NCBI GenBank assembly: GCA_026982655.1
Contig: JALSGO010000083.1
Location: 30-64,029 of the forward strand
Length of the DNA stretch: 64,000 nt
Source of the DNA: Candidatus Bipolaricaulota bacterium
Lineage (GTDB): Bacteria; Bipolaricaulota; Bipolaricaulia; RBG-16-55-9
Direction: 5' to 3'
Positions 28,763-52,618 of this stretch are shown here, one piece after another. The number at the start of each line of letters is the position of its first letter. The stretch's first letter is position 1. Position numbers and translations under genes: made by a program. The notes below the pieces were generated by a model that did not search any database, was not told the DNA's origin, and was given only the letters and a program-made list of their open reading frames with translations.

Positions 28763-28817
28763 CTCCCTTGGCCTCCCGGGGAGGACAACGTTATACTCGT
28801 TCGTGCCCTGTGCTACC

Positions 28818-28849
28818 TGTACCAGCTGTACTATGTACCATCTGTACCA
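28818..28849. repeat. Array of four TGTAC[C/T]A heptamer direct repeats (spacing 9/7/9) in the comEC-ABC transporter divergent intergenic region
   Basis: TGTACCAGC TGTACTA TGTACCATC TGTACCATCC read directly. Confidence 0.6.
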
Positions 28850-28904
28850 TCCCGGGCCCGGGCGAGCCAACGCCGGTTCGGTGCTTGCGCATACGGTGCA
28901 GGAA

Positions 28905-28940
28905 GCAAGGAGCAAGCAAGCAAGCAAGCAAACAAGCAAG
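28905..28940. repeat. (CAAG)n tetranucleotide microsatellite (~8 units, one imperfect) ending at the RBS of the ABC substrate-binding protein gene
   Basis: gcaagcaagcaagcaagcaaacaagcaagg read directly. Confidence 0.8.
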
Positions 28941-28951
28941 GAGGGAGAACG

Positions 28952-30565
28952 ATGGCTACGACCGCAAGGGATGTCGTCGTCCGGTGGGCACAGCGTGGGG
29001 GCCGTGCCCTGATCGTCGTGGGCCTAGGGGTCCTGGGGTTGCTGGGAGCCCTGGGGTGGGAGAGCGGGACGACGGCCGTTGGACAGGGTGCCTCCGAACT
29101 CGTCATCGGCGTGGCCAAGGACCAATATCGTCTCGAAGGGGACGCGGCCGCCTTGGGGGTTTACCCCTTGAACGCGAACATCACCGAGACGCTGGTGCGT
29201 CTCACCCCGGACTTCCAGATCATCCCCTGGCTAGCCACCTCGTGGGAGTACGTCGGGGAAAACACCTGGCGGTTCTCCCTGCGCCGGGGGGTCAAGTTCC
29301 ACAACGGGGACGAGATGGACGCCGAAGCCGTCAAGTGGTCGCTGGCCAAACAGCAGCGCTTCCAGCCCCTCTTCCCCGCGGGCGAGGAGAACATCCGCGT
29401 GGTGGACAAGTACACGATCGAGATCACGACCCGCTGGGACTTCCGCCGGGTGGTGGAGGCGCTCACCCACCCGAGCTACGCGATCTACTCACCCAAGGGC
29501 GACCCGGGGCGCAACCCCATCGGGACGGGGCCGTTCCGCCTGGTGGAGTACCGCCAGAACGAGGTCCTCGTCGTGGAGCGCTTCGCAGACTACTGGAACG
29601 CGGAGGAGGCCCCGCGGGTGGACCGCCTCGTCTTCCGCTTCGTCCCCGACGGTTCGACGCGTATCCTCGCGCTCCAGGCCGGCCAAGTCGACCTGATCGT
29701 GCCGGTCCCGCGCGAGAACGCCGCCGCGCTGGCTCAGCAGCCGGGCATCACCGTCTATCAAGCCCCTGCGAACGCTTACTACGCGCTCTACTTCGCCACC
29801 AAGGACCAAGTCCCACCCTATGATACCCTCACCGACCCTCGGGTGCGCAAGGCCGTCAACTACGCGATCGACCGGGAGACGATCGTCGAGCAGATCTACT
29901 CGGGCTTCGCCGAGGTGGCCAAGACCCTCACGCCGCCCGCCGTGCTCCCCGAAGTCGACGCCGGGGTAGAGGGCTTCTCGTTCTCCCCGGAGCGCGTGGC
30001 CGAGCTGCTCACGGAGGCGGGCTACACCCGCGGAGCCGACGGCTTCTGGGAGAAGGACGGCGAGCCGCTCGCCCTGACGCTGGTGTCGGGCTTCCCGCCC
30101 GCCAGCATCATCAAGCCCCTGCCGGAGGTCCTCCAGGCGATGCTCGAGGACCAGGGCATCCGGGTGCGCCTCGTCGAGTTCGACGACATCGGGGCCTACT
30201 ACGACTACGTCGACACCGGGGAGCTCCACATGGTCATCGAATCGGGCAGCTGGAACATGCCCGACCCCTCGTTCATCCCCTTCGGGCTCTTCTGCTCCTG
30301 CAACACCGAGGGGGAGGCCATCCTCTACCAGCGCTTCTGGATCAACGAGGCGTTCGAGCAAGAGGTCATGCGCATGGTCTCCGCCGAGGACCGGGCCGAG
30401 GTCGTAGAGGCCGCCGTCCGGGCCGCCCAGATCCTGGTCGACGAGTTCACGGGGGTGGGCCCGATCGCCTACATCCCGAACCTGATCGCCGCCCGCGATG
30501 AGGTCCAGGGGGTGGTCGTCCACCCGGCGGCCGTCCACCAGCGCTGGACGGGGATGGGCAAGTAA
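28952..30565 (+). CDS. ABC transporter substrate-binding protein, family 5 (peptide/nickel/opine; DppA/NikA-like)
   Basis: Signal/TM N-terminus then SBP_bac_5 fold hallmarks across ~535 aa; GGAGGGAG RBS; start ATG 28952 (longer ORF upstream is an extension). Confidence 0.8.
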   Translation: MATTARDVVVRWAQRGGRALIVVGLGVLGLLGALGWESGTTAVGQGASELVIGVAKDQYRLEGDAAALGVYPLNANITETLVRLTPDFQIIPWLATSWEYVGENTWRFSLRRGVKFHNGDEMDAEAVKWSLAKQQRFQPLFPAGEENIRVVDKYTIEITTRWDFRRVVEALTHPSYAIYSPKGDPGRNPIGTGPFRLVEYRQNEVLVVERFADYWNAEEAPRVDRLVFRFVPDGSTRILALQAGQVDLIVPVPRENAAALAQQPGITVYQAPANAYYALYFATKDQVPPYDTLTDPRVRKAVNYAIDRETIVEQIYSGFAEVAKTLTPPAVLPEVDAGVEGFSFSPERVAELLTEAGYTRGADGFWEKDGEPLALTLVSGFPPASIIKPLPEVLQAMLEDQGIRVRLVEFDDIGAYYDYVDTGELHMVIESGSWNMPDPSFIPFGLFCSCNTEGEAILYQRFWINEAFEQEVMRMVSAEDRAEVVEAAVRAAQILVDEFTGVGPIAYIPNLIAARDEVQGVVVHPAAVHQRWTGMGK

Positions 30566-30651
30566 CCCGGGCGGCAAACGCAAAGCGCGCAAGGCTTGCG
30601 TGAGGCTCCGGGGGACGAGGGACAGTCCGGAGGGGCAGGAGGGCGAACGGC

Positions 30652-31584
30652 GTGTTGCGCTATCTCGCCTCGCGTCTGGTGCAGCTGGGGGTCGTCTTGT
30701 TCGCCATCACGGTACTGAGCTTCGCCCTCCTGCACCTGGCCCCCGGCGACCCGGCCCAGATCCTCCTACGCAACCAGGGGGCGCTGCTCACCCAGACGAC
30801 CGTCGAGAAGATGCGGGCGGAGCTGGGGCTGGATCAGCCCCTTCCCGTGCAGTATTGGAGGTGGTTGAGGGGCGCCGTGCGCTTGGATTTCGGGGTCTCT
30901 TTCCGGACGGGGCAACCCGTCGCCGAGCTGCTCCTCGGGCGCTTGGGGGCGACGGTGGAGCTGGCCGCGGCGGCGTTGGTCCTGGCCCTGCTGTGGTCGG
31001 TGCCCTTGGGCATCCTCGCCGCCGTCTATCGGGACACCCTCCTCGACCACGCGAGCCGTCTGCTCGCGCTGGTAGGGGCGTCCATGCCCAGCTTTTGGCT
31101 TGGACTTCTGCTCATCTACGCCTTCGCCGTCCAATTGGGTTGGTTTCCCGTCCTGGGCCGGGGGTCGCTGGCCCACCTGGTGCTCCCTGCGATCACCCTT
31201 GCGTTGAGCTTGGCCCCCGTCTACATGCGCCTGATCCGGGCGAACCTCTGCGATGCGCTGCGGGAAGACTACATCCGGACCGCGCGGGCCAAAGGGGCCT
31301 CCGAGCGGCGGGTGATCCTGCGCCACGGGCTGCGGACGGCCCTCATCCCCGTGGTCACCCTCTTCGGGATGACGCTGGCCCACTTGTTGGGCGGCACCGT
31401 CGTGGTCGAGACGATCTTCGCTTGGCCGGGGATTGGCCAGCTCGCCGTCGAGGCGATCCTGAACCGAGACTTTCCCGTTGTCCAGGCCTTTGTGCTGCTC
31501 CTGTCCCTCGCCTTCGCGCTGGCCAACCTGGCCGTCGACCTCTTCTACGTCTTGCTGGACCCGCGGATCCGAGTGGAGGGATAG
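30652..31584 (+). CDS. ABC transporter permease (DppB/NikB-like)
   Basis: Six TM helices, EAA-like motif (ARAKGASERRVILRHGLRTALIP). Confidence 0.85.
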   Translation: MLRYLASRLVQLGVVLFAITVLSFALLHLAPGDPAQILLRNQGALLTQTTVEKMRAELGLDQPLPVQYWRWLRGAVRLDFGVSFRTGQPVAELLLGRLGATVELAAAALVLALLWSVPLGILAAVYRDTLLDHASRLLALVGASMPSFWLGLLLIYAFAVQLGWFPVLGRGSLAHLVLPAITLALSLAPVYMRLIRANLCDALREDYIRTARAKGASERRVILRHGLRTALIPVVTLFGMTLAHLLGGTVVVETIFAWPGIGQLAVEAILNRDFPVVQAFVLLLSLAFALANLAVDLFYVLLDPRIRVEG

Positions 31585-31587
31585 GGC

Positions 31588-32415
31588 GTGTGGAGACGGC
31601 TTCGGAGGGATCGGCTGGCCTGGGTGGGGCTCCTCCTCCTTGGGGGCATCGGCGCCGCGGCCCTGTTCGCCCCGTGGCTGACGGACCGGGATCCCCTCGA
31701 GACCGACTTCCTCCGGCGCTTCGAGCCGCCGAGCCGGGAGCACCCCTTGGGCACCGACCAGCTGGGGAGGGATCTGCTCGCCCGCTTGCTCTACGGCGCC
31801 CGCTACACCCTGGGGGCGGGCTTGGCGGCCTTGGTCCTCATCCTTACGGTGGGCACGGCGGTCGGCTTGGGGGCCGGACTCGTGGGAGGGCGCGTGGACG
31901 CCTTTCTGATGCGGATTGTGGACGTCCTGCTCGCCTTCCCCGGACTGATCTTGGCGTTGGCGATCGTCGGAATGCTGGGGCCCAGCTTGGGCAACGTGCT
32001 GATCGGAATCGCGGCCGTAAGCTGGGCTTCGTACGCTCGGGTGGTGCGGGGGTTGGTGCTCAGCCTGCGGGAACGGGAGTTCGTCGAAGCCGCCCGCGCC
32101 TTGGGCGCCCCTCGCCTCTGGGTGGCGCGACGGCACATCCTGCCCCATGTGCTCCCGACGGTCGTGGTGCTGGCCAGCCTCGATCTGGGCAACCTGCTGT
32201 TGGCCATCTCGGCGCTCTCCTTCCTCGGCGTCGGCGCGCAGGCTCCCACCCCGGAGTGGGGACGCATGCTCAACGACGCGCGGGCCTTCCTCTGGCAGGC
32301 TCCCCACCTGATGCTCTTTCCCGGGTTGGCCCTCTTCTTGGTGGTGCTCGCCTGTAACTTCTTGGGGGACGGGCTGCGCGATCTGCTCGATCCGCACCTT
32401 CGACAAGGGAGCTGA
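31588..32415 (+). CDS. ABC transporter permease (DppC/NikC-like)
   Basis: N-terminal DppC-type segment, EAA motif (EAARALGAPRLWVARRHILPHV). Confidence 0.85.
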   Translation: MWRRLRRDRLAWVGLLLLGGIGAAALFAPWLTDRDPLETDFLRRFEPPSREHPLGTDQLGRDLLARLLYGARYTLGAGLAALVLILTVGTAVGLGAGLVGGRVDAFLMRIVDVLLAFPGLILALAIVGMLGPSLGNVLIGIAAVSWASYARVVRGLVLSLREREFVEAARALGAPRLWVARRHILPHVLPTVVVLASLDLGNLLLAISALSFLGVGAQAPTPEWGRMLNDARAFLWQAPHLMLFPGLALFLVVLACNFLGDGLRDLLDPHLRQGS

Positions 32416-32478
32416 CGGATGCCGGATCCGTTCCCGCCCTTGACAACCCGGGTCGGTCGTGGTATCGTAGGATCGCCT

Positions 32479-32502
32479 TTCCCACCCCACCGGGGGTGGG
32501 AA
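32479..32502 (+). promoter_or_regulatory. CsoR-type operator, perfect 10-bp-arm inverted repeat TTCCCACCCC-ACCG-GGGGTGGGAA
   Basis: Read directly; same architecture (CCCACCCC-N4-GGGGTGGG) as characterised CsoR operators; 28 nt upstream of the Rieske gene start. Confidence 0.6.
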
Positions 32503-32530
32503 GAGCCCGAGGAAAGGGGAGGGATCTCTC

Positions 32531-33181
32531 GTGAAAGCGCGGAAGAAACGGCCCGAGGAGGAGCGGTGGGAACTCTCGCCGGAGGCGCGTCGACTGAGCC
32601 GGCGGAAGTTCCTGGCTCGCTTGGGCCTGGGCTCGCTGGTCCTCACGGCGGGAGGAGCGGTCAGCAGCATCGGCGCCTACATCCTGCCGAAGGTGAACTT
32701 TGAGCCCTCTCAAGCGTTTACCGCCGGGCGACCGGAGGACTACAACGTCGGGGACGTGCGGCTGATCGAATCCCAGGCCGTGTTCATCTTCCGCACGCCC
32801 TATGGCTTTCAGGCCGTCTCGGACATCTGCACCCACCTGGGGTGCGCCTATCAGCCGTACGGCCCGCCGGACGACGAGTACCCCCAGGTCCATGCCCATT
32901 GCCCCTGTCACGGGTCGGTCTTCGCGCGGGACGGGCGGGTGTTGCGGGCTCCCGCTCCTCGGCCCGTGCCCTTCTACTACATGACGATCAACCCATCGGG
33001 CTTGCTGGTGGTGGACAAGGGGGTCTACGATCCCACGGACGAGCTGAGCCGCCAGAGCGGCGAGGGGGTAGGGCACAACCTCTATCTCGACCCCGAGACG
33101 GGGCAGATGGTAGAGGGTCCGCTGCCCACCGGCGAGGACCTCCGGTTCGGAGCGATCCGAACCGAGCCCTCTCGAGGCTGA
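32531..33181 (+). CDS. Rieske [2Fe-2S] iron-sulfur protein with twin-arginine signal
   Basis: SRRKFLARLG Tat motif; CTHLGC...CPCHGS Rieske boxes; AGGGGAGGG RBS. Confidence 0.8.
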   Translation: MKARKKRPEEERWELSPEARRLSRRKFLARLGLGSLVLTAGGAVSSIGAYILPKVNFEPSQAFTAGRPEDYNVGDVRLIESQAVFIFRTPYGFQAVSDICTHLGCAYQPYGPPDDEYPQVHAHCPCHGSVFARDGRVLRAPAPRPVPFYYMTINPSGLLVVDKGVYDPTDELSRQSGEGVGHNLYLDPETGQMVEGPLPTGEDLRFGAIRTEPSRG

Positions 33182-33268
33182 AGCCCGCGGGTGCGGAACG
33201 GGCGTGGAATAGAGAGAACAAAGAAGGAAGGCAAAGAAAGAATCTCCCAACGATGGAGGTGCTGTTCG

Positions 33269-35848
33269 GTGCAGAGATCGCAGGCACAGGCGAGGACGGC
33301 GACGGAGAAACGGGAGCAAAGCTCCGCGGACACGCGTCTGGAGCTCCCCATCCGCGGGATGACGTGCGCTTCGTGCGTGGCCCGGGTCGAGCGGGCGCTC
33401 CAAGGCGCGCCCGGCGTCCGGGAGGCCCAGGTGAACTTCGCCGCGGAGCGCGCGTCCGTGGTGCTCAACCCGGAGGCGGGCTCCCCGGAAGCGCTGGTGG
33501 AGGCCGTCCGCGAGGCCGGCTATGAGGTCCCCACCGAGGCGCTCACCCTGCGGGTAAAGGGGATGACGTGCGCTTCGTGCGTGGCCCGGGTCGAGCGGGC
33601 GCTTCGCGAGGTCCCGGGAACCTTGAAGGCCGCGGTCAACTTCGCCGCGGAGACGGCCCAGATCGAGTACCTCCCCGGGGTGGCCTCGCCGCAGGACTAC
33701 CTCCAGGCCGTCCGGGACGCGGGCTACGAGGCCCAGCTCGCCGAGGAGGAGCGGGGCGAGGACGCGCTGGAGCGCCAGAGGCGGGAACACGAGGCCCATC
33801 TCAAGAAGCTCCGCCTTAAGATCGCCGTCGGTGCGATCATCAGCGTCCCCGTCTTCTTCGGCAGCTACCCCAAGCTCTTCCCCTGGGTGCCGGAGATCCT
33901 GCAGAACTTCTACGTGCTCTGGGCGCTGACCACCCCGGTGCAGTTCTGGGTCGGCTGGCAGTTCTACAAGGGGACCTGGGCGGCCTTAAAGCACAAGTCC
34001 GCGGACATGAACACGCTGATCGCCGTCGGCACCTCCGCGGCCTACCTCTACAGCGTGCTCCTCATCTTGTTCCCCCGGTTCTTCGAGGCCCAGGGGATCG
34101 CCCGGGAAGTGTACTTTGACACCTCGACGATCATCATCACCCTCATCCTGGTGGGGCGGTATCTCGAGGCCGTGGCCAAGGGACGCACCTCGGAGGCCAT
34201 CCGCAAGCTCATGGGGCTCCAAGCCAAGACGGCCCGCGTGGTCCGCGACGGGCGCGAGATCGAGATCCCCGTCGAGGAGGTCCAGGTCGGCGACATCGTG
34301 GTGGTGCGCCCCGGCGAGAAGGTGCCTGTAGACGGCGTGGTGATCGAGGGCTCCTCCGCGGTGGACGAGTCGATGGTCACGGGCGAGTCGATCCCCGTGG
34401 AGAAGGGCCCCGGCGACGAGGTGATCGGGGCGACGATCAACAAGACGGGGACCTTTACCTTCAAGGCGACCCGAGTGGGCAAGGACACCTTCCTGAGCCA
34501 GATCATCAAGCTGGTCGAGGAGGCCCAGGGCTCGAAGGCCCCCATCCAGCGCCTGGTCGACAAGGTGACGGGCGTCTTCGTCCCGGCGGTGATGCTCATC
34601 GCCTTGGGGACGTTCGTCGTGTGGTACTTCTTCGGGCCGCACCCCGCTTTGACCTATGCGCTGCTCAACGCCGTGTCGGTGCTGATCATTGCCTGCCCCT
34701 GCGCGCTGGGGCTGGCCACTCCGACGTCCATCATGGTGGGGATGGGCAAGGGGGCCGAGCACGGCATCTTGATTCGCAGCAGCGAGGCGCTCGAGCGGGC
34801 GGGCAAGATACAGACCATCGTCTTCGACAAGACGGGGACGCTCACCCGCGGAGAGCCCCAACTGACGGACATCCTCCCCGCGGAGGGCTTCACGGAGGCC
34901 GAGGTGCTCCGACTGGCGGCGGCCGCGGAGCGGCGGAGCGAGCACCCCCTGGGGGAGGCGATCGTCCGAGGCGCCGAGGAGCGGGGGTTGGACTTGGCCG
35001 AGCCGGAGGGCTTCCAGGCGATCCCGGGCCACGGCATCGAGGCCACGGTCGAGGGGCACCGGGTGCTGTTGGGCAACCGGCGGCTCATGGAACGGGAGGG
35101 CGTCGACGTGCGCGCCTTGCAGGCCCAACTGGAGCGACTGGCCGACGAGGGCAAGACCCCCATGATCGTGGCCGTCGACGGCCGGGCAGCCGGGGTGCTG
35201 GCCGTGGCCGACACCCTCAAGGAGGGCTCCCGAGAGGCGATCGAGGCGCTGCACCGGTTGGGCATCGAGGTGGCGATGATCACGGGCGACAACCGGCGCA
35301 CCGCCGAGGCGATCGCCCGCCAGGTGGGGATCGATCGGGTGCTGGCCGAGGTGCTCCCCCAGGACAAGGCCAAGGAGGTCAAGCGCCTCCAGCAGGAGGG
35401 CCGGGTGGTGGCCATGGTGGGCGACGGGATCAACGACGCGCCCGCGCTGGCCCAGGCCGACGTGGGGATCGCCCTGGGGACGGGGACGGACATCGCCATC
35501 GAGACGGCCGAGGTCATCCTGATCTCGGGCGACGTGCGCGGGGTGGTGACCGCCATCGCCCTCTCCCGGGCCACGATCCGCAACATCAAGCAGAACCTCT
35601 TCTGGGCCTTCTTCTACAACACGGCGCTCATCCCTGTGGCCGCCGGGGTGCTCTACCCGTTCACGGGCCTGTTGCTCAACCCCATCCTCGCCGCGGCGGC
35701 GATGGCCACCAGCTCCGTCTCCGTGGTGACGAACGCCCTGAGGCTGCGGCGGTTCCGCCCCCCGGTCGTCCAGGGACCGCCCGGCCCCTCGCGCGGGGAG
35801 CCGCGCCCCGACTCCGTCCCGGTCCCGGCGGCCGGAGCGGGCCGCTAG
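33269..35848 (+). CDS. copA: Copper-translocating P1B-type ATPase with two N-terminal HMA domains
   Basis: Two [12 protein letters not shown] (MxCxxC) domains, TGES, CPC in TM6, [19 protein letters not shown]; GTG start chosen (ORF opens at 33191). Confidence 0.9.
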
Positions 35849-35923
35849 AGGGCAGAGCGGACGACCGTCGATCGCCCTTGCCCTCGCAACCACAACGAAG
35901 AAGAGAAGAGAGGAGAGGAGAGG

Positions 35924-36238
35924 ATGACCGAAGAACTACTGGTGTTGTTACAGCAGGGGAGCCTGGCGGCCCACCCGGAGGCGAAGCGCCACGCCCAGCG
36001 GCTCGTCCGCACCGTCATCGGCCACACCCAGGGCATCGAGCGGATGATCGAGGAAGAGCGATACTGCATCGACATCTTAAAGCAGATCGCCGCGGTGCAG
36101 GGGCTGCTGACCAAGCTGGCCCACACCGTAAGCGAAGCCCACATGAAACACTGCGTGCGACTGGCCATCGAGGAGGGCCACGGCGAGGAGGCCGTTGAAG
36201 AACTGATGGAGACGCTGAAATACCTGCGGAGCGTATAG
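35924..36238 (+). CDS. csoR: CsoR family Cu(I)-sensing transcriptional repressor
   Basis: ~104 aa; Cys (RYC) and H-x3-C (AHMKHC) with C-to-H spacing of 25 as in M. tuberculosis CsoR C36/H61/C65; no N-terminal His cluster (not RcnR). Confidence 0.8.
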   Translation: MTEELLVLLQQGSLAAHPEAKRHAQRLVRTVIGHTQGIERMIEEERYCIDILKQIAAVQGLLTKLAHTVSEAHMKHCVRLAIEEGHGEEAVEELMETLKYLRSV

Positions 36239-36245
36239 TTCCCCC

Positions 36246-38663
36246 ATGGGGTGGCTGGACGGCCTGCTGCGCCATCGTGGGCTCGTGCTGGGGGCGGCTT
36301 TGCTGCTCACCGTTCCGGCGCTCCTGTCTCTCAGTCGATTGGAGTCCCAGGACACCTACGATGCTTGGTTCCCCCCGGACGACCCGGCGTATCGCTTCTA
36401 TCGGGAGTTCCAGCGGCGGTTTGAGAACGACATGTTCATCGTGGTGGCCTATCGAGACGAGACCCTCTTCACCCGGGAGGGGCTGGCGTTCCTCGCGGAG
36501 CTCACCGCCCGTCTTGCGGAGCTCCCCTACGTGCGGGAGGTGACCAGCCTCACGAACGTCGAGCACGTCCGGGGGGAAGAGCAGGCGCTCATCGTCGAAC
36601 CCCTCGTCCCCGATCCGGAGCGCCTCGATCCCGACGTCGTCCGGCAACGGGCCCTCTCGCGCCCCCTCTACCGCGGGCTGCTGATCTCCGAGGACGGGAC
36701 GACGACCGCGGTCGTCGCCGAACTCGACCGGATCGCCTCCATGGACGAGGAGGCCGCTCTGGTGGGGGCCCTCAAGGACCTCCTGCGCACGCTGGAGGTC
36801 CGAACGGGCAAGTCCTTCTACATCGGGGGCTATCCCGTCCTCGACGTCGAGATCATGCAGGCTTCCGAGCGGGATATCCGGACGTTCATCCCCTTGACCG
36901 TCGGGGCCATCTTCCTCGTATTGTGGGGGGTCTTCCGCCGACCGTCGCTGGCCGCCCTGGCGTTCGTGTCCGTCTCGCTGGCGCTGGCTTGGACCTTCGG
37001 GCTGTACGCCGGCCTGGGTCTTAAGTACAGCATGATGCTGAGCATCCTGCCCACGATCATCCTCGCCATCGGGATTGCGGATGCGGTACACATCTTGGTC
37101 CACTACTACGAGGAGCTCGCCCGGGGGCGGCCGCAGCGGGAGGCCCTCCGTCAGACCCTACGAAAGATGCTCCGCCCCTGTCTGTTCACGACGCTGACGA
37201 CCGGAGCCGGGTTCATCTCGTTCTTGAGCAGCGATATCCCCGTGGTGCGGCTGACGGGGCTCTTTGCCGCGGTGGGCATCGGGCTTGCGTTCGTGCTCAC
37301 GGTGCTCGTGCTGCCCGCAGCCGTCTCGTTTTTCCGCCCGCCGCACGGGACGGCCCGGCGACGGTCTCAGGGCACGTTCGCTCGGGCCTTGGAGGGGCTG
37401 ACCCGAACGACCCTGGCCCACCCGCGCGCCGTGCTCCTGGGGGCCGGGATCGTGCTCGTCTTCGGCCTGTACGGGATCTCCCGCTTGGAAGCCGAGACGC
37501 TGGGCCTGGAGTGGCTGCGCGACGACCACCCCCTCCAGCAGAGCTATCGCTTCATCGAGGAGAACCTCACCGGGCTGTACAACCTCGAGCTCATCGTCGA
37601 GGGCGAACGGGACGCGCTCCGCTCCCCCGAGATGCTCCGCCGGATCGAGGAACTCAGTGCGTTTGCGCTCCAACAGCCGGGCGTGCGCAAGGCGATCTCC
37701 GTGGTCGACTACGTCAAAGAGATCCACCGGGCGCTCCGCGGGGGAGATCCCCGGTACTACACGATCCCGGACACGGCCCGCGACGTCGCGCAGGCGTTGT
37801 TGCTCTACGAGTTCTCCGGGGGACGCGAGCTGCGCGAGATCGTAAGCGGCGACTACAGCGCCGGACGACTCACCCTGCTGCTGGATGCCCTCTCCAGCCG
37901 GGAGTACACCGAGCTCAACCGACGCATCCTCGAGCGCGCCGAGACGTTGGACTTCCCTCGGCCCGTGCAGGCAACCGGTGCAGTGGTCCTGGTCGAGGCG
38001 ATGCTCAAGAAGCTCACCCTCAGCCAGGTCCGGAGCTTGGGGTTGGCTTTGGCCCTGATCACCTTGCTTATGATCGCCCTGTTGCGCTCCTGGAAGTTGG
38101 GGCTGCTCAGCTTGATCCCCAACGGGCTGCCGATCCTGCTGATGTTTGCGACCATGGGCCTGCTCTCCATCCCCCTGGACGCGGCGACGTCCACGGTCGC
38201 GGGGATGGCTTTAGGGATCGCCGTGGACGACACGATCCACTTCTTGACCCGCTTCCGACGCGAACTGAACGTGACGGGCGACTATCGCCGGGCGCTCACG
38301 CAGACGGCCCGGACGGTCGGCCAGGCGATCGTGTTCACGTCCGTGATCCTGCTGGCCGGCTTCAGCGTGCTGTTGCTGGGCAGCTTCAAGGGAACGGTGT
38401 ATATGGGGTTGCTCGTCGGGCTCACGATGCTCTTCGCGCTCGTAGGGGATTTGGTGCTCCTACCCGCGCTGCTCTGGGTCCTCAAGCCCCTCCCTGTGTC
38501 CGCAGCTGCTTCGACCCCGGCTCCGGCTCCGATGGCGGACGATGGCCGATCAGCTTCCGACCAGAGGAGGTTGAGGGAGGTCATGGACGACGCCCCCCGG
38601 GTGCAGGGTACGCTTATGCGTGGCCGGGACGAGGAAACAGGAGCCCGCGAAGCCGGCAGGTGA
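36246..38663 (+). CDS. RND superfamily transporter, MMPL/HpnN-like (12 TM, two periplasmic loops)
   Basis: 805 aa with duplicated 6-TM bundles and MMPL-type motifs (GIGIADAVHIL..., GIAVDDTIHFLTRF). Confidence 0.8.
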   Translation: MGWLDGLLRHRGLVLGAALLLTVPALLSLSRLESQDTYDAWFPPDDPAYRFYREFQRRFENDMFIVVAYRDETLFTREGLAFLAELTARLAELPYVREVTSLTNVEHVRGEEQALIVEPLVPDPERLDPDVVRQRALSRPLYRGLLISEDGTTTAVVAELDRIASMDEEAALVGALKDLLRTLEVRTGKSFYIGGYPVLDVEIMQASERDIRTFIPLTVGAIFLVLWGVFRRPSLAALAFVSVSLALAWTFGLYAGLGLKYSMMLSILPTIILAIGIADAVHILVHYYEELARGRPQREALRQTLRKMLRPCLFTTLTTGAGFISFLSSDIPVVRLTGLFAAVGIGLAFVLTVLVLPAAVSFFRPPHGTARRRSQGTFARALEGLTRTTLAHPRAVLLGAGIVLVFGLYGISRLEAETLGLEWLRDDHPLQQSYRFIEENLTGLYNLELIVEGERDALRSPEMLRRIEELSAFALQQPGVRKAISVVDYVKEIHRALRGGDPRYYTIPDTARDVAQALLLYEFSGGRELREIVSGDYSAGRLTLLLDALSSREYTELNRRILERAETLDFPRPVQATGAVVLVEAMLKKLTLSQVRSLGLALALITLLMIALLRSWKLGLLSLIPNGLPILLMFATMGLLSIPLDAATSTVAGMALGIAVDDTIHFLTRFRRELNVTGDYRRALTQTARTVGQAIVFTSVILLAGFSVLLLGSFKGTVYMGLLVGLTMLFALVGDLVLLPALLWVLKPLPVSAAASTPAPAPMADDGRSASDQRRLREVMDDAPRVQGTLMRGRDEETGAREAGR

Positions 38664-38722
38664 GCGGCCTGCTCTGCCGGACGAAGCCATTCGGAAGCGA
38701 GAGGAAGGGAGGAAAGGAACTC

Positions 38723-39373
38723 ATGAACCCGCAGGAACGATGGAACGATGCTCTGACGCCGGAGAAGGAACCGACCGAGGGAGCTCTCTCGACGCCGCCC
38801 CCGGACGGCGCGTCCGAGGGGACCGGAGAGGGGCGGTCCCCTAAGGGGCGAACCGTGGGGATCGCCCTGATCCTCGCCGTGGTCGTGGGGATCGGCATCG
38901 GGTACTCGCTGTATTCCTTGCGGGCCGAGAGGGTGTCCGGGCTGGCGTCCACGGGGAGGGAGGTAGACCGGGGCCTCGGCGGCGGCATGCCGGCGATCGT
39001 GGTGGCCCCGCTGCTTAGGGATCTCGGGGAGGTGAGCGTCCAAGGGGGGACGGTGACCACCTTCTTCACCGTGCGCAATCCCGGGGACGGGGTGCTGGTC
39101 ATCACCGACATGGAGACTTCCTGTATGTGCACGGAGGTCGCTTTGATCGTGGACGGCGTGGAAGGCCCTCGACTCGGGATGCGCGGCCACGGTCCGCGGC
39201 CCGAGTGGTCGGCCCGGCTGAACCCGGGCGAGGAGGCGACCCTTAAGGTCTACTACGACCCCACGGTACACGAGGAGCTACGCGGACCGGTCACCCGCGT
39301 GGTGCGGGTTCACACGAACGTCCCCACCCGTCCCTACGTGGACATCTTGATCGATCTGGTGCAAACGGACTGA
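38723..39373 (+). CDS. DUF1573 domain protein (SCxCT motif variant SCMCT), membrane-anchored
   Basis: TM anchor, then FTVRNPGDGVLVITDMETSCMCT matching the DUF1573 signature N-G-PL-I-SCGCT; GGAGGAAAGGAA RBS. Confidence 0.65.
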   Translation: MNPQERWNDALTPEKEPTEGALSTPPPDGASEGTGEGRSPKGRTVGIALILAVVVGIGIGYSLYSLRAERVSGLASTGREVDRGLGGGMPAIVVAPLLRDLGEVSVQGGTVTTFFTVRNPGDGVLVITDMETSCMCTEVALIVDGVEGPRLGMRGHGPRPEWSARLNPGEEATLKVYYDPTVHEELRGPVTRVVRVHTNVPTRPYVDILIDLVQTD

Positions 39374-39424
39374 CTCCCGTGGGCAGACCGAAGGCTACAC
39401 GACAATCGGGGAGGGAATGCCAAG

Positions 39425-40000
39425 GTGATGAACGGGGAATCGAGGGACAAGGACCAAGGTCAGAATACGGAGATGCACGCGATCCGCCGCCGGGCGGCCT
39501 TCTTGAGCCGAGGCGGAGTGAGCCTGCCCCTCCTGATCATCGGGGTCCTCCTGGCCCTGGGGACGACTGCGGGCCTGGGGTATTTGCGTCTGGCGGGCCC
39601 ACCGGCGGCAGGCCCTCCGCGCATCGAGGTCACGCCGGAGCTCATCGAGTTCGGAGAGATCTCCCCCACCGAGAAGGCGGTCGTGGAGTACCGTGTGCGA
39701 AACGCCGGGGGAAGCCCGTTGGAGATCACCCGCGTGAGCACCTCGTGTGGGTGCACCACCGCCGAGGTCGGCAAGACGACGCTCCTCCCCGGCGAGACGA
39801 CTCCGTTGCGCGTCACCTTCGACCCCCAAGCGATGCGGGCCGAAGGGCTCAACGAGGAGGACATCTACCGGATCATCTTCCTAAGGAGCAACGACCCCGA
39901 GCGGCCGGAGGTTACCGTCGAGCTTCGCGGTCGCGTCCTGCCGTCGGACTCGGACTCGAACTCGAACTCGGAGCCGGAGTCTGCCGTCGAGGGGAGGTAA
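39425..40000 (+). CDS. DUF1573 domain protein (canonical SCGCT motif), membrane-anchored, (DS/NS)n-rich C-terminus
   Basis: YRVRNAGGSPLEITRVSTSCGCTT signature; paralog of the preceding gene. Confidence 0.7.
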   Translation: MMNGESRDKDQGQNTEMHAIRRRAAFLSRGGVSLPLLIIGVLLALGTTAGLGYLRLAGPPAAGPPRIEVTPELIEFGEISPTEKAVVEYRVRNAGGSPLEITRVSTSCGCTTAEVGKTTLLPGETTPLRVTFDPQAMRAEGLNEEDIYRIIFLRSNDPERPEVTVELRGRVLPSDSDSNSNSEPESAVEGR

Positions 40001-40098
40001 CCGAAGCGCTCGGTTGGGGCCGGGCACGGGGGACGGCCCCCTAATCCCACCCCAGGAGGGAAGGGAAAGGGGAAGCTTCCTGAAGGAAGAAGAAGCCC

Positions 40099-42771
40099 AT
40101 GGCCAAGGTCAAAGACCCCGTCTGCGGGATGGAGATCGACGAGGAAGAGGCCGTCGCCTCCCACGTCTACGAGGGGCAGACGTACTCCTTCTGCTCCAAG
40201 GACTGCGAGAAGGAGTTCGTCGAGAAGCCCGAGTTTTATGTCAAGCCGGAGCCCGCCCGCTCGGCGACCACGGGCGTGGACGTCGAGAGCACGGAGCCGG
40301 TGCACGCCGAGCTCCCCCTGGCGGGCTTGGACTGCACCAGCTGCGTGGTGACCGTCGAGCGCACCCTGCGGGAGGTCCCCGGCGTGGAGAGGGCCCACGT
40401 CAACTTCTCGCTGGGGATCGCGCACGTCACCTACGATCCCAAGGAGGCGAGCGTCGAGGACGCCGTCCAGGCGCTCAAGAAGGCGGGCTACGACGTGGGG
40501 GCCGCCGAGATGCGGGTGCGCATCGAGGGGCTTCGCTGCGCCTCCTGTGTGGGCTTCATCGAGGAGGCCCTGCGGAAGGTCCCCGGCGTCTTGGAGGCCA
40601 CGGTGAGCCCCGGAACGGAGACGGCGGTCATCCGCTACGTCCCCGGGATGGTGAGTTTTCCGGCGATCAAGGAAGCGATCGAATCTACGGGCTACAAAAC
40701 GGTCCACCGCCTGGAGGAGGAGGAGCCGCCCGATCAGGAGGCCGCCGCCCGCGAGCGGGAGTACCGCCTGCTCATGCGCCGCTTCCTCTTCGCCGCCGTC
40801 GTCTCCGTCCCGGTGCTCCTTACGGCCTATCCCGAGTTCGTGCCCTTCTTGAGGGATCTTCCCCGGAGCACGATCCGGCTCATCTGGGCCTTCGACGCGC
40901 TGCTGACGCTGCCCGTGTTGTTGTGGTCGGGTCAGCGCTTCTTCACGGGCGCTTGGGCGGCGTTCAAGCACCACAGCGCGGACATGAACACGCTGATCGC
41001 GCTGGGCACCGGCGCGGCGTGGGCCTATTCGACGGTCGCGATCGCCTTCCCTCAAGTGTTCCCCGAGGGGACGGCGGAGCCCTTCTTCGACGTGGCCGCC
41101 GTGGTCATCGCCTTGGTCGTGTTGGGCCAAGCGCTCGAGGTCCGGGCCAAGGGGCGCACCAGCGCGGCGATCAAAAAGCTTCTCGACTTACAAGCCAAGA
41201 CGGCCCGCGTGGTGCGCGACGGGCAGGAGATGGACATCCCCGTGGAAGAGGTGCTCGTGGGCGACGTGGTGGTGGTCCGCCCCGGCGAGAAGGTGCCTGT
41301 AGACGGCGTGGTGATCGAGGGCTCCTCCGCGGTGGACGAGTCGATGATCACCGGGGAGCCGATCCCCGTGGAAAAAAATCCCGGGGATGAGGTGATCGGC
41401 GGGACGATCAACAAGACGGGGTCCTTCAAGTTCCGGGCGACCAAGGTGGGCAAGGAGACGGCGCTGGCGCAGATCGTCCAGCTCGTACAACAAGCCCAAA
41501 GCACCAAGCCCCCGATCGCCCGGCTGGTGGATGTGGTGAGCGGCTACTTCGTGCCCGCGGTGATGATCATCGCGGTGCTGGCGTTCTTGGTATGGTTTAA
41601 TTTCGGGCCGGAGCCGCGGCTGACCTTCGCCCTGGTGACCGCGGTGACCACGCTGATCATCGCCTGCCCCTGCGCGCTGGGGCTGGCCACCCCCATGAGC
41701 ATCATGGTCGGGGTGGGCAAGGCCGCCGAACACGGGATTCTCATTCGCAACGGCGAGGCCCTCCAAAAGGCCTCGAAGCTGGACACGATCGTGCTCGACA
41801 AGACGGGCACGGTCACCAAGGGGAAGCCCGAGCTGACCGACGTGATCGCCGCTGAGGGCTTTACAGAAGACGAGGTGCTCCGCCTGGCGGCCAGCGCGGA
41901 GCGGGCCAGCGAACACCCCTTGGCCGAGGCGATCGTCCAGGGCGCCCAGGCGCGCGGACTGGAGCTTGCGGACCCCGAGACGTTCAACGCCGTCCCCGGC
42001 CACGGGATCGAAGCCACGCTCGACGGCAAGAGAGTGCTCCTGGGCAACGTAAAACTCATGAAGCGCGAGGGCATCGACGTCGGCGGCCTCCGCGAGGCGG
42101 CGGAGCGCCTCTCCGACGAGGGCAAGACCCCGATGTACATGGCCGTCGACGGCCAAGCCGCGGGGCTGATCGCCGTGGCCGACACGATCAAGGAAGACTC
42201 CGTCGCGGCCATTCGGACGCTCCAGGAGCTGGGGCTGGAGGTCGTCATGCTCACCGGGGACAACCGCCGCACCGCCGAGGCGATCGCCCGCCAGGTCCAC
42301 ATCGACCGGGTCCTGGCCGAAGTGCTCCCGGAGCAGAAGGCGGCAGAGGTGAAGAAGCTGCAGCTCGAGGGCCGCAGGGTCGGCATGGTCGGCGACGGGA
42401 TCAACGACGCGCCCGCCCTGGCCCAGGCCGACGTGGGCTTCGCCATCGGGACGGGGACGGACGTGGCCATTGAAGCTGCGGACATCACGCTCGTGGGCGG
42501 AAGCCTCCGCGGGGTGGTCACCGCCATCGAGATCTCCAAGGCCACCATGCGCAACATCAAGCAAAATCTCGTGGGAGCCTTCATCTACAACACGCTGGGC
42601 ATCCCGGTGGCCGCGGGGGTCTTCTATCCCCTCACGGGGATGCTGCTGAGCCCCCTCATCGCGGGGGCGGCGATGGCGTTTAGCAGCGTGACCGTGGTGA
42701 CGAACGCCAACCGCCTGCGGCGGTTCCGGCCCCGGATCGTCTCCGACTTCGAGGAAGGAGGTACGACATGA
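40099..42771 (+). CDS. copA: Copper-translocating P1B-type ATPase with N-terminal YHS/TRASH domain plus two HMA domains
   Basis: [11 protein letters not shown]...[12 protein letters not shown] (YHS/TRASH); two CxxC HMA domains; [16 protein letters not shown]. Confidence 0.9.
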
Positions 42772-43142
42772 TCGCGCAAATCGTGGTGAACGTCTTGGGG
42801 CTGCTCGCGATCGTCTGGATCGTCTGGTACTTCTGGATCTACGAGAAGAAGGGCGTCGTGGCCGCGGAGGCGGGCGGCGCTCAAGAAGTTCGCATTCGGG
42901 TCAAGGGGGGCTACGACCCCGACGTCATCGTCGTCCAGGCCGGAAAGCCCGTGAAACTCCACTTCTACCGCGAGGAGGAGGCGTCGTGCAGCGAGACGGT
43001 CGTCTTCCCGGACTTCGCCCAGTCGCTGAAGCTTCCGCCCTTTGAGACCGTCACCCTGGAGCTTCTGCCGGAGAAGCCGGGGGAGTACGAGTTCCACTGC
43101 CAGATGAACATGCTGCGGGGCAAGCTCATCGTGGAGGAGTGA
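42768..43142 (+). CDS. Cupredoxin-like domain small membrane protein fused downstream of copA ([10 protein letters not shown] motif)
   Basis: N-terminal TM helix, ~90 aa beta-sandwich region with Cys/His/Met cluster; paralog of 48785-49270; start overlaps copA stop (ATGA). Confidence 0.6.
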
Positions 43143-43190
43143 GCCCTACGTGCGATCCACCTCCACAGAGAACGAAAGGATCGAAAGGGC

Positions 43191-44582
43191 ATGGGCGTAG
43201 ACTTGACGTTCCTCGGCGCCGCCGGGACGGTCACGGGCTCCAAGTATTGGCTCTCGGCGGGCGGCAAAAACTATCTCATCGACTGCGGGCTCTTCCAGGG
43301 ACCGGACGAGCTGGAGCAGCTCAACTGGGAACAGCTTCCCATCGCCCCCGCGGAGCTGGACGCCGTGGTGCTGACCCACGGGCACCTCGACCACTCGGGG
43401 TACCTCCCGCGGCTTGCGAAGAGGGGCTACTCCGGGCCGGTCTACGCCTCGGAGGCCACCTGCGCGCTGCTCGAGCTGCTTTTGCCCGACTCGGGATACC
43501 TGCAGGAGGAGCACGCGGGCTACGCCAACCGCAAGGGCTACTCCCGCCACAAGCCCGCGCTTCCGCTGTACACCTACGACCAAGCGCTCGAGTCCCTAAA
43601 GCTCTTACGGCCCGTGAAGCTCGCGGAGCCCTTCGCCGTAGACAAACACCTCACGGTCACGATGCGCCCGGCGGGCCACATCCTGGGCTCCGCGATCGTA
43701 GAGTGCGAGCTTGATAATAAAAAGATCGTCTTCTCCGGGGACCTGGGCCGCTACGATCAGGAAGTGATGAAATCCCCAGCGACGGTGACGCGGGCCGACT
43801 ATCTGCTGGTCGAGTCGACGTACGGCGATCGGGAGCACGGCGAGGACCCCATCGAAGATCAGCTGGCCCCCGTGGTGAACGCCGCTGTCGAGCGCGGCGG
43901 GGCGCTTCTCATCCCGAGCTTCGCCGTGGGCCGCACCCAGCACGTCCTCTACTACCTGCGAAAGCTCCAAGACCAAAAGCGCATCCCCGAGGTGCCCATC
44001 TACGTGGACAGCCCGATGGCCATCGACGCGACGGCGATCTACTGCCGCTTCGGAGATGAGCTCAACCTCAACGTCAACCTGCTGATGGACGACGAAGCCT
44101 GCCCGCTGCGCTGCCGCGACACGCGCTTTACGCGGACGGTCCCCGAGTCGAAGCGGCTCAACGACGCGCCGGGGCCTCTTGTGATCCTCTCCGCGAGCGG
44201 GATGTGCACCGGCGGTCGGATCCTCCACCACCTGAAGCACCGCCTGCCCGACCCCAAGAACACCGTGCTCTTCGTGGGCTACCAGGCCCAAGGCACCCGG
44301 GGCCGCAGGCTCCTCGAGGGAGCCGACGAGATCAGAATTCACGGGATGACCGTCCCGGTGCGGGCGGAGATCGCCCAGATCGACGGCCTCTCCGCCCACG
44401 GAGACGCCCGGGAGCTGATGCGCTGGCTCTCCGGGTTCGAGCGGCCTCCCGAACAGACGTTCCTCGTCCACGGGGAGCCGCACGCCTCCCAAGCGCTGGA
44501 GGAGCGCATTCGGAAGGAGCTGGGCTGGGCGACCCACCGGCCCCGCTACGGCGAGACCGTCTCCTTGGAGGGCAGGGGATGA
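43191..44582 (+). CDS. MBL-fold beta-CASP family RNA-metabolising hydrolase
   Basis: THGHLDHSG metallo-beta-lactamase motif, beta-CASP motifs (D..H..H) and C-terminal RNA-specificity region. Confidence 0.75.
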   Translation: MGVDLTFLGAAGTVTGSKYWLSAGGKNYLIDCGLFQGPDELEQLNWEQLPIAPAELDAVVLTHGHLDHSGYLPRLAKRGYSGPVYASEATCALLELLLPDSGYLQEEHAGYANRKGYSRHKPALPLYTYDQALESLKLLRPVKLAEPFAVDKHLTVTMRPAGHILGSAIVECELDNKKIVFSGDLGRYDQEVMKSPATVTRADYLLVESTYGDREHGEDPIEDQLAPVVNAAVERGGALLIPSFAVGRTQHVLYYLRKLQDQKRIPEVPIYVDSPMAIDATAIYCRFGDELNLNVNLLMDDEACPLRCRDTRFTRTVPESKRLNDAPGPLVILSASGMCTGGRILHHLKHRLPDPKNTVLFVGYQAQGTRGRRLLEGADEIRIHGMTVPVRAEIAQIDGLSAHGDARELMRWLSGFERPPEQTFLVHGEPHASQALEERIRKELGWATHRPRYGETVSLEGRG

Positions 44583-45304
44583 TCCGCTACGCGCTCTTCG
44601 ACTTGGACGACACGCTCTATCCCCCGGCGGCGGGGCTCATGGAGGCCCTCAGCCGCCGCTTTACGCAGTGCATCGCCGAGGAGCTGGGCATCTCCCTCGA
44701 ACAAGCCGAGGCCCTGCGGCGCGAGTACGGCAAGCGCTACGGCTCGACCACGCGGGGGCTCGCCCTGCATCACCACGTGGACATCGGGGGATTTTTGGCC
44801 AAGGTCCACGACCTGCCCATCGAGGAGTATCTGCAGCCCGACCCCGAGCTGGGGTGTTTGTTGGACTGCATCGACGCGCAGAGGTGCATCTTCACCAACG
44901 CGCCGGAGGCCTACGCCCGGCGGGTGTTAGACGTCCTGGGCGTCGCGGATCGCTTCTGTCGGGTCTTCGCGGTCGAGTTCTCGGGTTATAGGGGCAAGCC
45001 CGACCCCCTCGTCTACGAGCGGGTGGTCGCCGAGCTGGGCGCTTCCGACCCGGAGATCGTGATGCTCGACGACGTGCGGGCCAACCTCCTCCCCGCCGCG
45101 CAGAGGGGCTGGACGACCGTCTGGGTCAACGGGCGGGGGAAGCCCGCCGACCCTCAAGACCTCGACGGGATCTCCTATGCGGTGGGCGACCTCTGGGAGG
45201 TGGCCCGCGTCTTCCGCGAGATCGGGCTCCTCGACGAGGCCCACCACGAGGAGTGGAACCGCTGCCTCCTCCGGTGCCCGCTGGGCCGGAGACGGGCTGG
45301 GTGA
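44579..45304 (+). CDS. HAD superfamily hydrolase (pyrimidine 5'-nucleotidase/SDT1-like)
   Basis: FDLDDTLY motif I, FTNAP motif II, later K and DD motifs. Confidence 0.7.
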   Translation: MIRYALFDLDDTLYPPAAGLMEALSRRFTQCIAEELGISLEQAEALRREYGKRYGSTTRGLALHHHVDIGGFLAKVHDLPIEEYLQPDPELGCLLDCIDAQRCIFTNAPEAYARRVLDVLGVADRFCRVFAVEFSGYRGKPDPLVYERVVAELGASDPEIVMLDDVRANLLPAAQRGWTTVWVNGRGKPADPQDLDGISYAVGDLWEVARVFREIGLLDEAHHEEWNRCLLRCPLGRRRAG

Positions 45305-45347
45305 CCTTGCTGGACGTCTTCCGGGGGGAACATGACGCAGATCATTG

Positions 45348-45371
45348 ATCCCACCCCACGGGGGGTGGGAT
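45348..45371 (+). promoter_or_regulatory. CsoR-type operator, perfect inverted repeat ATCCCACCCC-ACGG-GGGGTGGGAT lying between -35 TTGATC and -10 GATAAT
   Basis: Read directly; 18-bp spacer promoter fully occupied by the palindrome; downstream gene is cytochrome b. Confidence 0.65.
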
Positions 45372-45405
45372 AATGGCGGGCGAAAGGCGGGCGAAGGAGG
45401 GACGC

Positions 45406-46491: not shown

Positions 46492-46495
46492 GACC

Positions 46496-47077: not shown

Positions 47078-47103
47078 GCGCAAAGGGGGCCGAGAGGAAG
47101 GAG

Positions 47104-48309: not shown

Positions 48310-48331
48310 CCCACCCCCTCTGGGGTGGAAT
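48309..48331 (+). promoter_or_regulatory. CsoR-type operator (imperfect): ACCCACCCC-CTCT-GGGGTGGAAT between -35 TTGACC and -10 AATAAT (17-bp spacing)
   Basis: Read directly; paralogous to the 45331-45375 module (CATGACGCA..TCATT..CCCACCCC..GGGGTGG.ATAAT). Confidence 0.55.
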
Positions 48332-48342
48332 AATAGAGTGAA

Positions 48343-48669: not shown

Positions 48670-48784
48670 CCTCCGCTTCGTTCTTTTGCCCGTGCCCGCG
48701 GTCCTTTGAACGGGCCTTCGTCGGCCTAAGGGATCGTACGTATCTCAACTCCATCTGCAATCTGCACAAGGAGCAGGAGGTCGA

Positions 48785-50109: not shown

Positions 50110-50159
50110 CTGGGAAACGGAGAACGGATCGAGAACCCAGGAGAAAGGAGGAAGCGGCG

Positions 50160-51173: not shown

Positions 51174-51227
51174 GCCGATTGGAACAGGGACGACCCGACG
51201 AGATCGAGGACGAGGAGGCGAGCGACG

Positions 51228-52613: not shown

Positions 52614-52618
52614 AAGGG

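Follow-up and report, generated by a model that had tools for sequence, protein, structure and literature searches.

A Rieske iron-sulfur protein gene at the head of a predicted CsoR-controlled copper efflux operon in a Bipolaricaulota bacterium

We have analyzed a stretch of 64,000 nucleotides (nt) from contig JALSGO010000083.1 (assembly GCA_026982655.1) of a Candidatus Bipolaricaulota bacterium, which is called the window hereafter, with a focus on positions 32531-36238, where three genes on the + strand encode a Rieske [2Fe-2S] protein, a P1B-type Cu(I)-exporting ATPase (copA1) and the Cu(I)-sensing repressor CsoR. It is probable that one CsoR-controlled promoter ahead of the Rieske gene drives this gene, copA1, csoR, a gene for an HAE3/MMPL-type RND transporter and possibly a pair of DUF1573-type genes, and that the Rieske protein belongs to the CsoR regulon, the likeliest role for it, at somewhat less than even odds, being that of a partner of cytochromes b encoded in the same region. 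CsoR regulons described so far consist of pumps, chaperones and the repressor, and here a bc-type Rieske protein and two cytochromes b appear to be included as well, across several uncultured lineages.

A sigma-70-like promoter is located upstream of the Rieske gene at 32440-32468 on the + strand (TTGACA, a 17-nt spacer and TATCGT, with TG one base 5' of the -10 box, giving an extended -10 element). A CsoR-type operator, the perfect 10+10 inverted repeat TTCCCACCCC-ACCG-GGGGTGGGAA at 32479-32502, begins 11 nt after the -10 box, and from the position of the promoter it should lie at roughly +4 to +28. The operator core CCCACCCC-N4-GGGGTGGG is that of the Mycobacterium tuberculosis cso operator GTAGCCCACCCCCAGTGGGGTGGGATAC (PMC10601412), and with one mismatch at most it occurs four times in the window as against zero times in 100 shuffled sequences. 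CsoR operators are G-tract pseudopalindromes overlapping promoters (PMC3902906), and the site ahead of the Rieske gene is a G-tract pseudopalindrome abutting its promoter, as is typical of CsoR-regulated cop operons. Each of the four promoter-like hits in 32300-56500 either overlaps one of four near-perfect operators or lies directly beside it. When seven orthologous upstream regions were aligned, the invariant positions formed only three blocks, which are the -35 TTGAC, the extended -10 (TG-n-TA...T) and the operator, and they represent a phylogenetic footprint of a repressor-controlled promoter. The palindrome at 32479-32502 was also considered as a terminator of the preceding ATP-binding cassette (ABC) operon and was rejected in this role, since it has no T-run and the same motif lies within promoter spacers elsewhere. 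No Rfam match was obtained anywhere in the window, and hence no known riboswitch is present in the ABC or cop leaders.

The original prediction assigned to the copA1/csoR unit a sole operator 5' of the Rieske gene, and our motif scan agrees with this, as no operator match was found between 32531 and 40045. The distances given there were confirmed from the coordinates, copA1 (33269-35848, +) following the Rieske gene (32531-33181, +) after 87 nt and csoR (35924-36238, +) following copA1 after 75 nt, and the reported lack of a palindrome upstream of csoR was borne out: scans with the motif and with the sigma-70 consensus detected no operator-, promoter- or terminator-like site in either gap. The promoter and terminator scan recognizes sigma-70 consensus sites only, and other promoter types escape it; within 32300-38900 it returned 32440-32468 as the single promoter-like site and no terminator-like site on the + strand before 38024. 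The folds of both gaps and of the copA2 and Rieske leaders were no more stable than those of shuffled sequences (z +0.58 to -1.6). A hairpin after copA1 (35848-35887), considered as a terminator or attenuator, was dropped because it lacks a T-run.

One part of the original prediction, the end of the unit at csoR, has to be revised. The HAE3/MMPL gene (36246-38663, +; PF03176, TIGR00921) starts 8 nt past the csoR stop and is therefore probably co-transcribed with csoR, and the same order is found in a related locus, L175. The two DUF1573-type genes, both with a CxC motif (38723-39373 and 39425-40000, +; preceded by gaps of 59 and 51 nt), possibly form the tail of the unit; the pair is collinear in L175, L171 and L172, and since a 566-nt gap precedes it in L175, a separate promoter is possible for these genes. 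By sequence and comparison, we have found no further control element beyond the Rieske promoter-operator up to at least 38.6 kb. The proposed autoregulation of csoR by read-through from the Rieske promoter is consistent with the in silico tests (a single promoter and operator, no terminator, conserved gene order), and if the four genes from Rieske to MMPL form one transcript, csoR would be autoregulated from a distal position.

The genes behind the Rieske gene were assigned to a Cu(I) ATPase and a genuine Cu(I)-type CsoR. The copA1 product has E1-E2_ATPase and Hydrolase domains and two N-terminal HMA domains, scores over the cut-off of TIGR01511 (667 bits), and contains the CPC, YN and MxxSS motifs, so that the controlled unit holds a P1B-1 Cu(I) ATPase, as a cop operon does. 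Its start is most likely GTG 33269, because a GGAGG ribosome-binding site precedes this codon and the resulting length of 859 amino acids (aa) equals that of the L175 ortholog. CsoR has 104 aa (PF02583, E 6e-24), and its residues C48, H73 and C77 stand opposite C36, H61 and C65, which bind Cu(I) in M. tuberculosis CsoR (2hh7). The RLxR DNA-binding motif, defined for helix alpha-1 of CsoR in PMC3902906, is present as R26-L-V-R29. By tblastn, csoR has no paralog in the window and is a single copy. High third-position GC, as in real genes, was observed for all three same-strand open reading frames (ORFs) of 32531-36238, the GC content of the contig being 66.6%.

Eleven distinct gene contexts of Rieske homologs have been compared, and the operator is found upstream of the Rieske gene in six relatives (L001, L002, L164, L165, L175 and L006) with Rieske identities of 42-88%. 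The closest in order is L175 (about 85% Rieske identity), where a substrate-binding protein, two permeases, the operator, Rieske, CopA, CsoR, MMPL and two DUF1573 genes are collinear with 28952-40000 of the window; there is one operator in 18 kb, and the CsoR-MMPL gap is 20 nt. In L002 (about 70%) the operator is followed by Rieske, CopA, CsoR and a flavin adenine dinucleotide (FAD) oxidoreductase with gaps of 31, 24 and 10 nt, and in L165 (72%) an operator with one mismatch is followed by Rieske, CopA and CsoR with gaps of 39 and 55 nt. L164 (88%) shows operator, Rieske and CopA with a Rieske-CopA gap of 132 nt, and the contig ends inside copA. In L001 (70%) operator and Rieske are followed by three genes, CopA2 and a cupredoxin, and in L006 (42%) one operator precedes a CcdA-thioredoxin pair and a second one precedes the Rieske gene alone, after which unrelated sulfur genes are found. 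CopA thus directly follows Rieske in four of the six operator-bearing relatives and CsoR comes next in three of these four (L002, L165 and L175), with gaps of 24-87 nt for this order; the placement of a redox Fe-S gene first in a copper efflux operon, which had been predicted from the window, is accordingly a recurring arrangement. The more deviating contexts are L167/L168 (64%), with an operator-like site of two mismatches, DUF5676, YHS, CsoR, Rieske, a 64-aa ORF, an operator-like site of one mismatch, MMPL and a LolA-like gene, and L174 (57%), with the order HMA-YHS-Rieske.

As a background set, 140 more distant Rieske loci with identities of 41% or less have been collected by a metagenome scan with Rieske alignment patterns. 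A cytochrome b was found within 3 kb in 93 of them, CopA within 6 kb in one and CsoR in none, and operators were detected only in two Fraserbacteria/Bipolaricaulia loci. Since the distant loci are almost devoid of CopA and CsoR, the link of the present Rieske clade to CsoR-controlled copper genes is real and clade-specific. In a rough neighbour-joining tree, copper-linked members, including the earliest-branching ones, are spread across the Rieske clade.

These comparisons also bear on the identity of the palindromes, which could in principle be RNA hairpins or sites of another regulator, the Rieske gene then standing beside a copper operon by chance. The palindrome at 32479-32502 does lie 64 nt past the ABC permease stop, where it would fold as a strong hairpin, and a second CsoR-family regulator may be encoded elsewhere in the genome. 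However, the hairpin is not followed by a T-run, the motif is inside the promoter spacer in two cases, where a terminator would be senseless, and its core is identical to the experimentally used M. tuberculosis CsoR operator. Furthermore, the motif tracks Rieske, CopA and cytochrome b genes through differing gene orders in at least eight loci, and the linkage to CopA is as rare as 1/140 among the distant Rieske loci. We regard such a chance arrangement as extremely improbable.

It is a less remote but still quite unlikely explanation that the Rieske gene forms a short CsoR-controlled transcript of its own and that unrecognized internal promoters serve copA1, csoR and perhaps the MMPL gene, in which case csoR would not be autoregulated through the Rieske promoter. 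With 87 and 75 nt, both gaps could accommodate a promoter, the corresponding Rieske-CopA gap reaches 132 nt in L164, the L006 Rieske gene stands alone behind its operator with unrelated sulfur genes next to it, and the scan is confined to sigma-70 consensus sites. Against this, neither gap holds a promoter- or operator-like site and no terminator follows the Rieske gene. Every other promoter-like site of the island has an operator, so that a copper pump without one would be the odd one out, and in L002 and L165 the gaps are as short as 24-39 and 39-55 nt, respectively; apart from the ribosome-binding site, the gaps have no conserved block in common.

A CcdA/DsbD-like membrane protein and a thioredoxin-like protein are encoded directly 5' of the copper-linked Rieske gene in four relatives (L002 6418-7811, L164 4963-6412, L175 4384-5876 and L006 433-1850, the last with its own operator). 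These pairs recall thiol-disulfide systems suppressing copper sensitivity; the window instead has a CcdA/SfLAP-like gene at 49267-50109.

At the N-terminus of the Rieske protein (216 aa; PF00355, E 1.7e-10), a hydrophobic helix comes after the twin-arginine motif SRRKFLARLG, and the cluster motifs are CTHLGC and CPCHGS; in an alignment of 41 homologs, RR, CTHLGC and CPCHG are invariant or nearly so, and a C-terminal extension of about 50 residues is conserved. The CxH...CxxH ligands, the disulfide cysteines and a twin-arginine translocation (Tat) signal-anchor, which characterize Rieske subunits of Rieske/cytochrome b complexes, are thus all present. According to a profile search of solved structures and a fold search with an AlphaFold2 (AF2) model (predicted local distance difference test, pLDDT, 89.9; transmembrane helix 24-56), the best solved relative is Kuenenia kuste4569, followed by b6f PetC, and the fold matches include a structure of PetC3 (5cxm). 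The protein scores far below every NCBIfam equivalog cut-off (NF045928, PetC, 58.6 bits vs 250; TIGR01416, 39.3 vs 97.4; NF050121, 35.6 vs 275), and its sequence places it as a bc/b6f-type Rieske protein outside the equivalogs of all curated Rieske families. The Tat signal stated in the original prediction is present, and the release implied by the term "Tat-secreted" is less likely than anchoring: from helix 24-56 of the AF2 model, the signal probably serves as a membrane anchor, and we describe the protein as Tat-inserted and probably anchored. The b6f PetC fold match takes in the N-terminal transmembrane helix. A second Rieske gene was not found in the window by tblastn. The nearest named homologs are from Candidatus Fraserbacteria and Bipolaricaulota, and homologs are almost all from metagenome-assembled genomes, with about 75 clusters at 45% identity or more. 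A CxxC tail (DCxPC) closes many members of the family and is absent from the window's Rieske protein. Operator-less Rieske paralogs with 63-66% identity lead unusual operons in L003 (2754-8540) and L169 (8001-13834), in which Rieske is followed by a short cytochrome b (258-271 aa), RnfC-like, RnfD-like and two Fer2 proteins.

The Rieske gene in a copper operon becomes intelligible because operators of the same kind precede two cytochrome b operons 12-19 kb downstream, and from its sequence context we regard it as a conserved member of a predicted CsoR regulon with four or five units in 32.4-56.4 kb. Three further near-perfect operators coincide with the sole three further promoter-like sites of 38900-56500. 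The first (45345-45374, +), in which a perfect operator (45350-45369) separates TTGATC and GATAAT, precedes the genes for dihaem cytochrome b1 (45406-46491, +), an anchored Ig-like protein of 193 aa (46496-47077, +) and an FAD oxidoreductase (about 47104-48309, +), which is distantly geranylgeranyl reductase-like and has the Cys-rich tail CLREGCPCIGCAC. The operator and the cytochrome b module are conserved in L171, L172 and L174. The oxidoreductase appears to be a mobile member of the regulon, since it follows cytochrome b1 in the window and its L002 ortholog (11522-12664, 75% identity) directly follows csoR. The second site (48306-48334, +) consists of TTGACC, an operator with one mismatch (48310-48329) and AATAAT, and it heads an operon extending up to 52541 (+) with genes for a 108-aa ORF, a cupredoxin, a CcdA/SfLAP-like protein, a small HMA protein (about 50208-50474), a 176-aa Cys/His-rich protein and cytochrome b2 (51228-52541); this region is syntenic in L171. 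The third (52554-52582, +; TTGACA-17-TACAGT), with an operator of one mismatch at 52593-52612, precedes MMPL2 (52619-55573, +) and a LolA-like gene (55625-56407, +), and a match with two mismatches lies ahead of the MMPL2 ortholog of L171. Two MMPL genes are placed downstream of CsoR operators, and this hints at a remodelling of envelope lipids induced by copper.

In addition, a degenerate operator with two mismatches and no promoter-like site (40046-40065, +) is located 5' of copA2 (40099-42771, +; YHS and two HMA domains), after which a cupredoxin is encoded (42768-43142, +). The orthologs of copA2 have perfect operators in L171 and L172 and a match with two mismatches in L006, and from this comparison copA2 of the window genome may depend on read-through. 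The segment 40017-40065 between the second DUF1573 gene and copA2 contains a 7-bp GC hairpin without a T-run and the half-decayed operator CCCACCCCAGGAGGGAAGGG. Synteny of the entire island is kept on a contig of 148 kb, which also bears the L002 Rieske operon.

Both cytochromes b match PF00033 and PF13631, possess the four histidines of a dihaem protein with b6-type spacings of 14 and 15, and carry KPPW at the quinol-oxidation site, i.e., PPW rather than PEW. The haem-c motif CxxCH was found in none of the predicted window proteins, so that cupredoxins and no c-type cytochrome were recognized. The Rieske and cytochrome b1 genes are on one contig in the window and in Ga0434945_000156, and in L174 the Rieske gene and the cytochrome b1 ortholog are less than 1 kb apart, the cytochrome b operon lying there behind TTGATC, an operator-like site with two mismatches and GATAAT. 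On these grounds we give somewhat less than an even chance to the Rieske protein being the iron-sulfur partner of the copper-induced cytochromes b.

Around cytochrome b1 a conserved module is observed (45406-47077 of the window, L171, L172, L173 and L174), consisting of an optional DOMON protein, the dihaem cytochrome b, a transmembrane peptide of about 70 aa and the anchored Ig-like protein. The mature N-terminus of the latter begins with an invariant His (AHEGAEV..YP). Its assignment as a YcnI/CopC-like histidine-brace copper protein was considered and found to be unsupported, as the AF2 model (pLDDT 76) matches only generic Ig-like/macroglobulin-type domains.

Several points weigh against the overall scheme and should be considered together. 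The whole case has been built from sequence and synteny of uncultured genomes. Within the 87-nt or 75-nt gap, an internal promoter of a type other than the sigma-70 consensus is possible, and co-transcription with the pump is evidently not obligatory, since the L006 Rieske gene is alone behind its operator and that of L001 is three genes away from CopA2. In the window the Rieske gene adjoins neither cytochrome b, which are 12 and 18 kb away in separate units, and Chloroflexi cytochrome b1 homologs in L173 are surrounded by copper genes, a Rieske gene being absent within 6 kb of them, so that cytochrome b1 may not need this Rieske protein. Because the 63-66% paralogs sit in operator-less Rieske-cytochrome b-RnfC/D operons, the copper-linked Rieske protein could serve an Rnf-linked complex. 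The partnership of Rieske and cytochrome b is therefore the weakest step of our sequence-based argument, the genes not being adjacent and the Chloroflexi cytochrome b1 having no Rieske gene nearby.

The role of the Rieske protein may accordingly differ even if the operon is as described above. It is rather unlikely, although it deserves consideration, that the protein is a copper-stress isoform, which replaces a housekeeping subunit with a copper-vulnerable exposed [2Fe-2S] cluster and disulfide in an ordinary Rieske/cytochrome b complex. The paralogs in the Rieske-cytochrome b-RnfC/D operons, one of which is from the sample of L002, are in line with this, and the CcdA-like and thioredoxin-like genes 5' of Rieske in four relatives suggest periplasmic thiol/disulfide care. 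Cyanobacteria have alternative stress-linked Rieske isoforms, PetC2 and PetC3. However, the isoform explanation accounts neither for two full cytochrome b genes with the same operator nor for the neighbourhood of Rieske and cytochrome b1 in L174, and no housekeeping complex is visible in the window.

Another explanation, which we consider unlikely, is that the Rieske protein, the cytochrome b and cupredoxin or His-first periplasmic proteins constitute a redox-detoxification chain between the quinone pool and periplasmic copper, in place of a CueO-type multicopper oxidase. The cytochrome b1 module is embedded in copper genes in four lineages, Chloroflexi among them, two cupredoxin genes are included in the regulon, and the predicted window proteins lack the c-type cytochrome motif, all of which would fit such a chain. 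On the other hand, its copper sites are only putative, with the Ig-like protein matching generic beta-sandwiches only, the cupredoxins could be mere copper chaperones for the pumps, and an uphill oxidation of Cu(I) into quinone through Rieske and cytochrome b would cost energy.

In the mechanism we propose for the CsoR-controlled operon, CsoR bound at about +4 to +28 would block transcription in the absence of copper, and Cu(I) binding at Cys48, His73 and Cys77 would release it from the operator; both the binding to the sites and the release by Cu(I) are deduced from sequence. Pump and repressor would then rise together, which would give negative autoregulation from a distal operon position. 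The Rieske protein would be inserted by Tat, stay anchored in the membrane and act as a subunit of the Rieske/cytochrome b type, and together with the cytochromes b it may form a copper-inducible quinol-oxidising module, from which electrons would be passed to copper proteins rather than to c-type cytochromes. Extending this, we put forward tentatively, and with some doubt, that Fraserbacteria-like and Bipolaricaulota-like bacteria have a copper-inducible respiratory module, which combines the Rieske protein with one or two dihaem cytochromes b and no c-type cytochrome, is wired through CsoR operators to copper pumps, and either keeps quinol oxidation going under copper attack on the normal chain or links the quinone pool by electron transfer to periplasmic copper or to copper proteins (cupredoxins and His-first anchored proteins). 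If this is true, copper detoxification would be tied directly to a Rieske/cytochrome b complex. A previously unrecognized link between copper stress and quinol oxidation would then be indicated, by which an iron-sulfur subunit sensitive to copper is protected or replaced, or copper in the periplasm is handled by redox reactions. As directly testable objects the region offers five defined operator sites, a single repressor and a limited number of membrane proteins.

Upstream of the Rieske gene, genes for a NikA/Opp-type substrate-binding protein (28952-30565, +; start ATG 28952) and two ABC permeases (30652-32415, +) are preceded by a promoter-like site (28768-28797, +). The original prediction had noted an ABC importer without ATPase genes ahead of Rieske, and we came to the same result, since a search for the ATPase signature LSGGQ in every reading frame of the window gave no match. 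This trio, likewise without ATPase genes, is found beside the copper genes of L002, L164, L167 and L175, with two copies in L175, and the lack of the ATPase is therefore a conserved feature of this importer. In its leader, CTGTACCA is repeated about five times shortly after the promoter-like site (28809-28849), a (GCAA)n run lies ahead of the ribosome-binding site (28903-28943), and similar GCAA-rich leaders are found in L175; judging from the sequence, a different regulator may act there.

Several smaller features of the downstream part have also been registered. The 108-aa ORF of the cytochrome b2 operon (48343-48669) has a CLPC motif and an ortholog in L171, and as it starts 9 nt past the -10 box, it may be translated from an mRNA with hardly any leader. 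In the same operon, the 176-aa protein (50643-51173) carries LPCCPF...NCPCEHH and also has an ortholog in L171; neither of these two small conserved ORFs could be assigned to a family. There are three HAE3/MMPL (HpnN-like) transporters in the window, two of them paired with LolA-like proteins (PF17131), in the regions 36246-38663, 52619-56407 and 58189-61486, and a cyclopropane-fatty-acid-synthase-like gene is located at 56461-57798.

Among known systems, the cso operon of M. tuberculosis (csoR-Rv0968-ctpV-Rv0970) resembles the window operon in the operator core, in the Cys-His-Cys ligand spacing and in having the repressor in one operon with the P1B copper ATPase under its control, which makes it autoregulated. 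The window operon differs from it in that csoR is third and not first, a Rieske gene leads, an HAE3/MMPL gene follows csoR, and the operator is also found ahead of cytochrome b operons. The best solved sequence relative of the window CsoR is that of Thermus thermophilus (3aai), and the order in the T. thermophilus operon is copZ-csoR-copA, with csoR internal. A distal csoR without its own operator is thus an ordinary finding and a minor permutation of known autoregulated cso/cop operons, since autoregulated CsoR operons with an internal repressor gene are standard. The CsoR cop operons of Thermus, Bacillus, Listeria and Streptomyces have a CopZ chaperone, and in contrast to the window no Rieske or cytochrome b gene has been described for them in the searchable literature; likewise, we have found in that literature, including that on copper in Fraserbacteria, no published account of a Rieske or cytochrome b gene under CsoR or in a cop operon. 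A Rieske/cytochrome b pair under a copper repressor therefore appears to be new, and should the Rieske protein and the cytochromes b assemble, they would represent the first case of a copper sensor turning on a Rieske/cytochrome b module.

With PetC and kuste4569 of Kuenenia stuttgartiensis, the Rieske protein shares the fold, the CTHLGC...CPCHGS cluster and disulfide motif and the Tat signal-anchor helix, and it is distinguished from them by a gene that is detached from cytochrome b and placed under a copper repressor and by the extension of about 50 residues at its C-terminus. A precedent for a second, condition-specific Rieske protein is given by PetC2 and PetC3 of Synechocystis; they have low sequence similarity to the present protein and have not been reported under a copper repressor or encoded with a copper pump.

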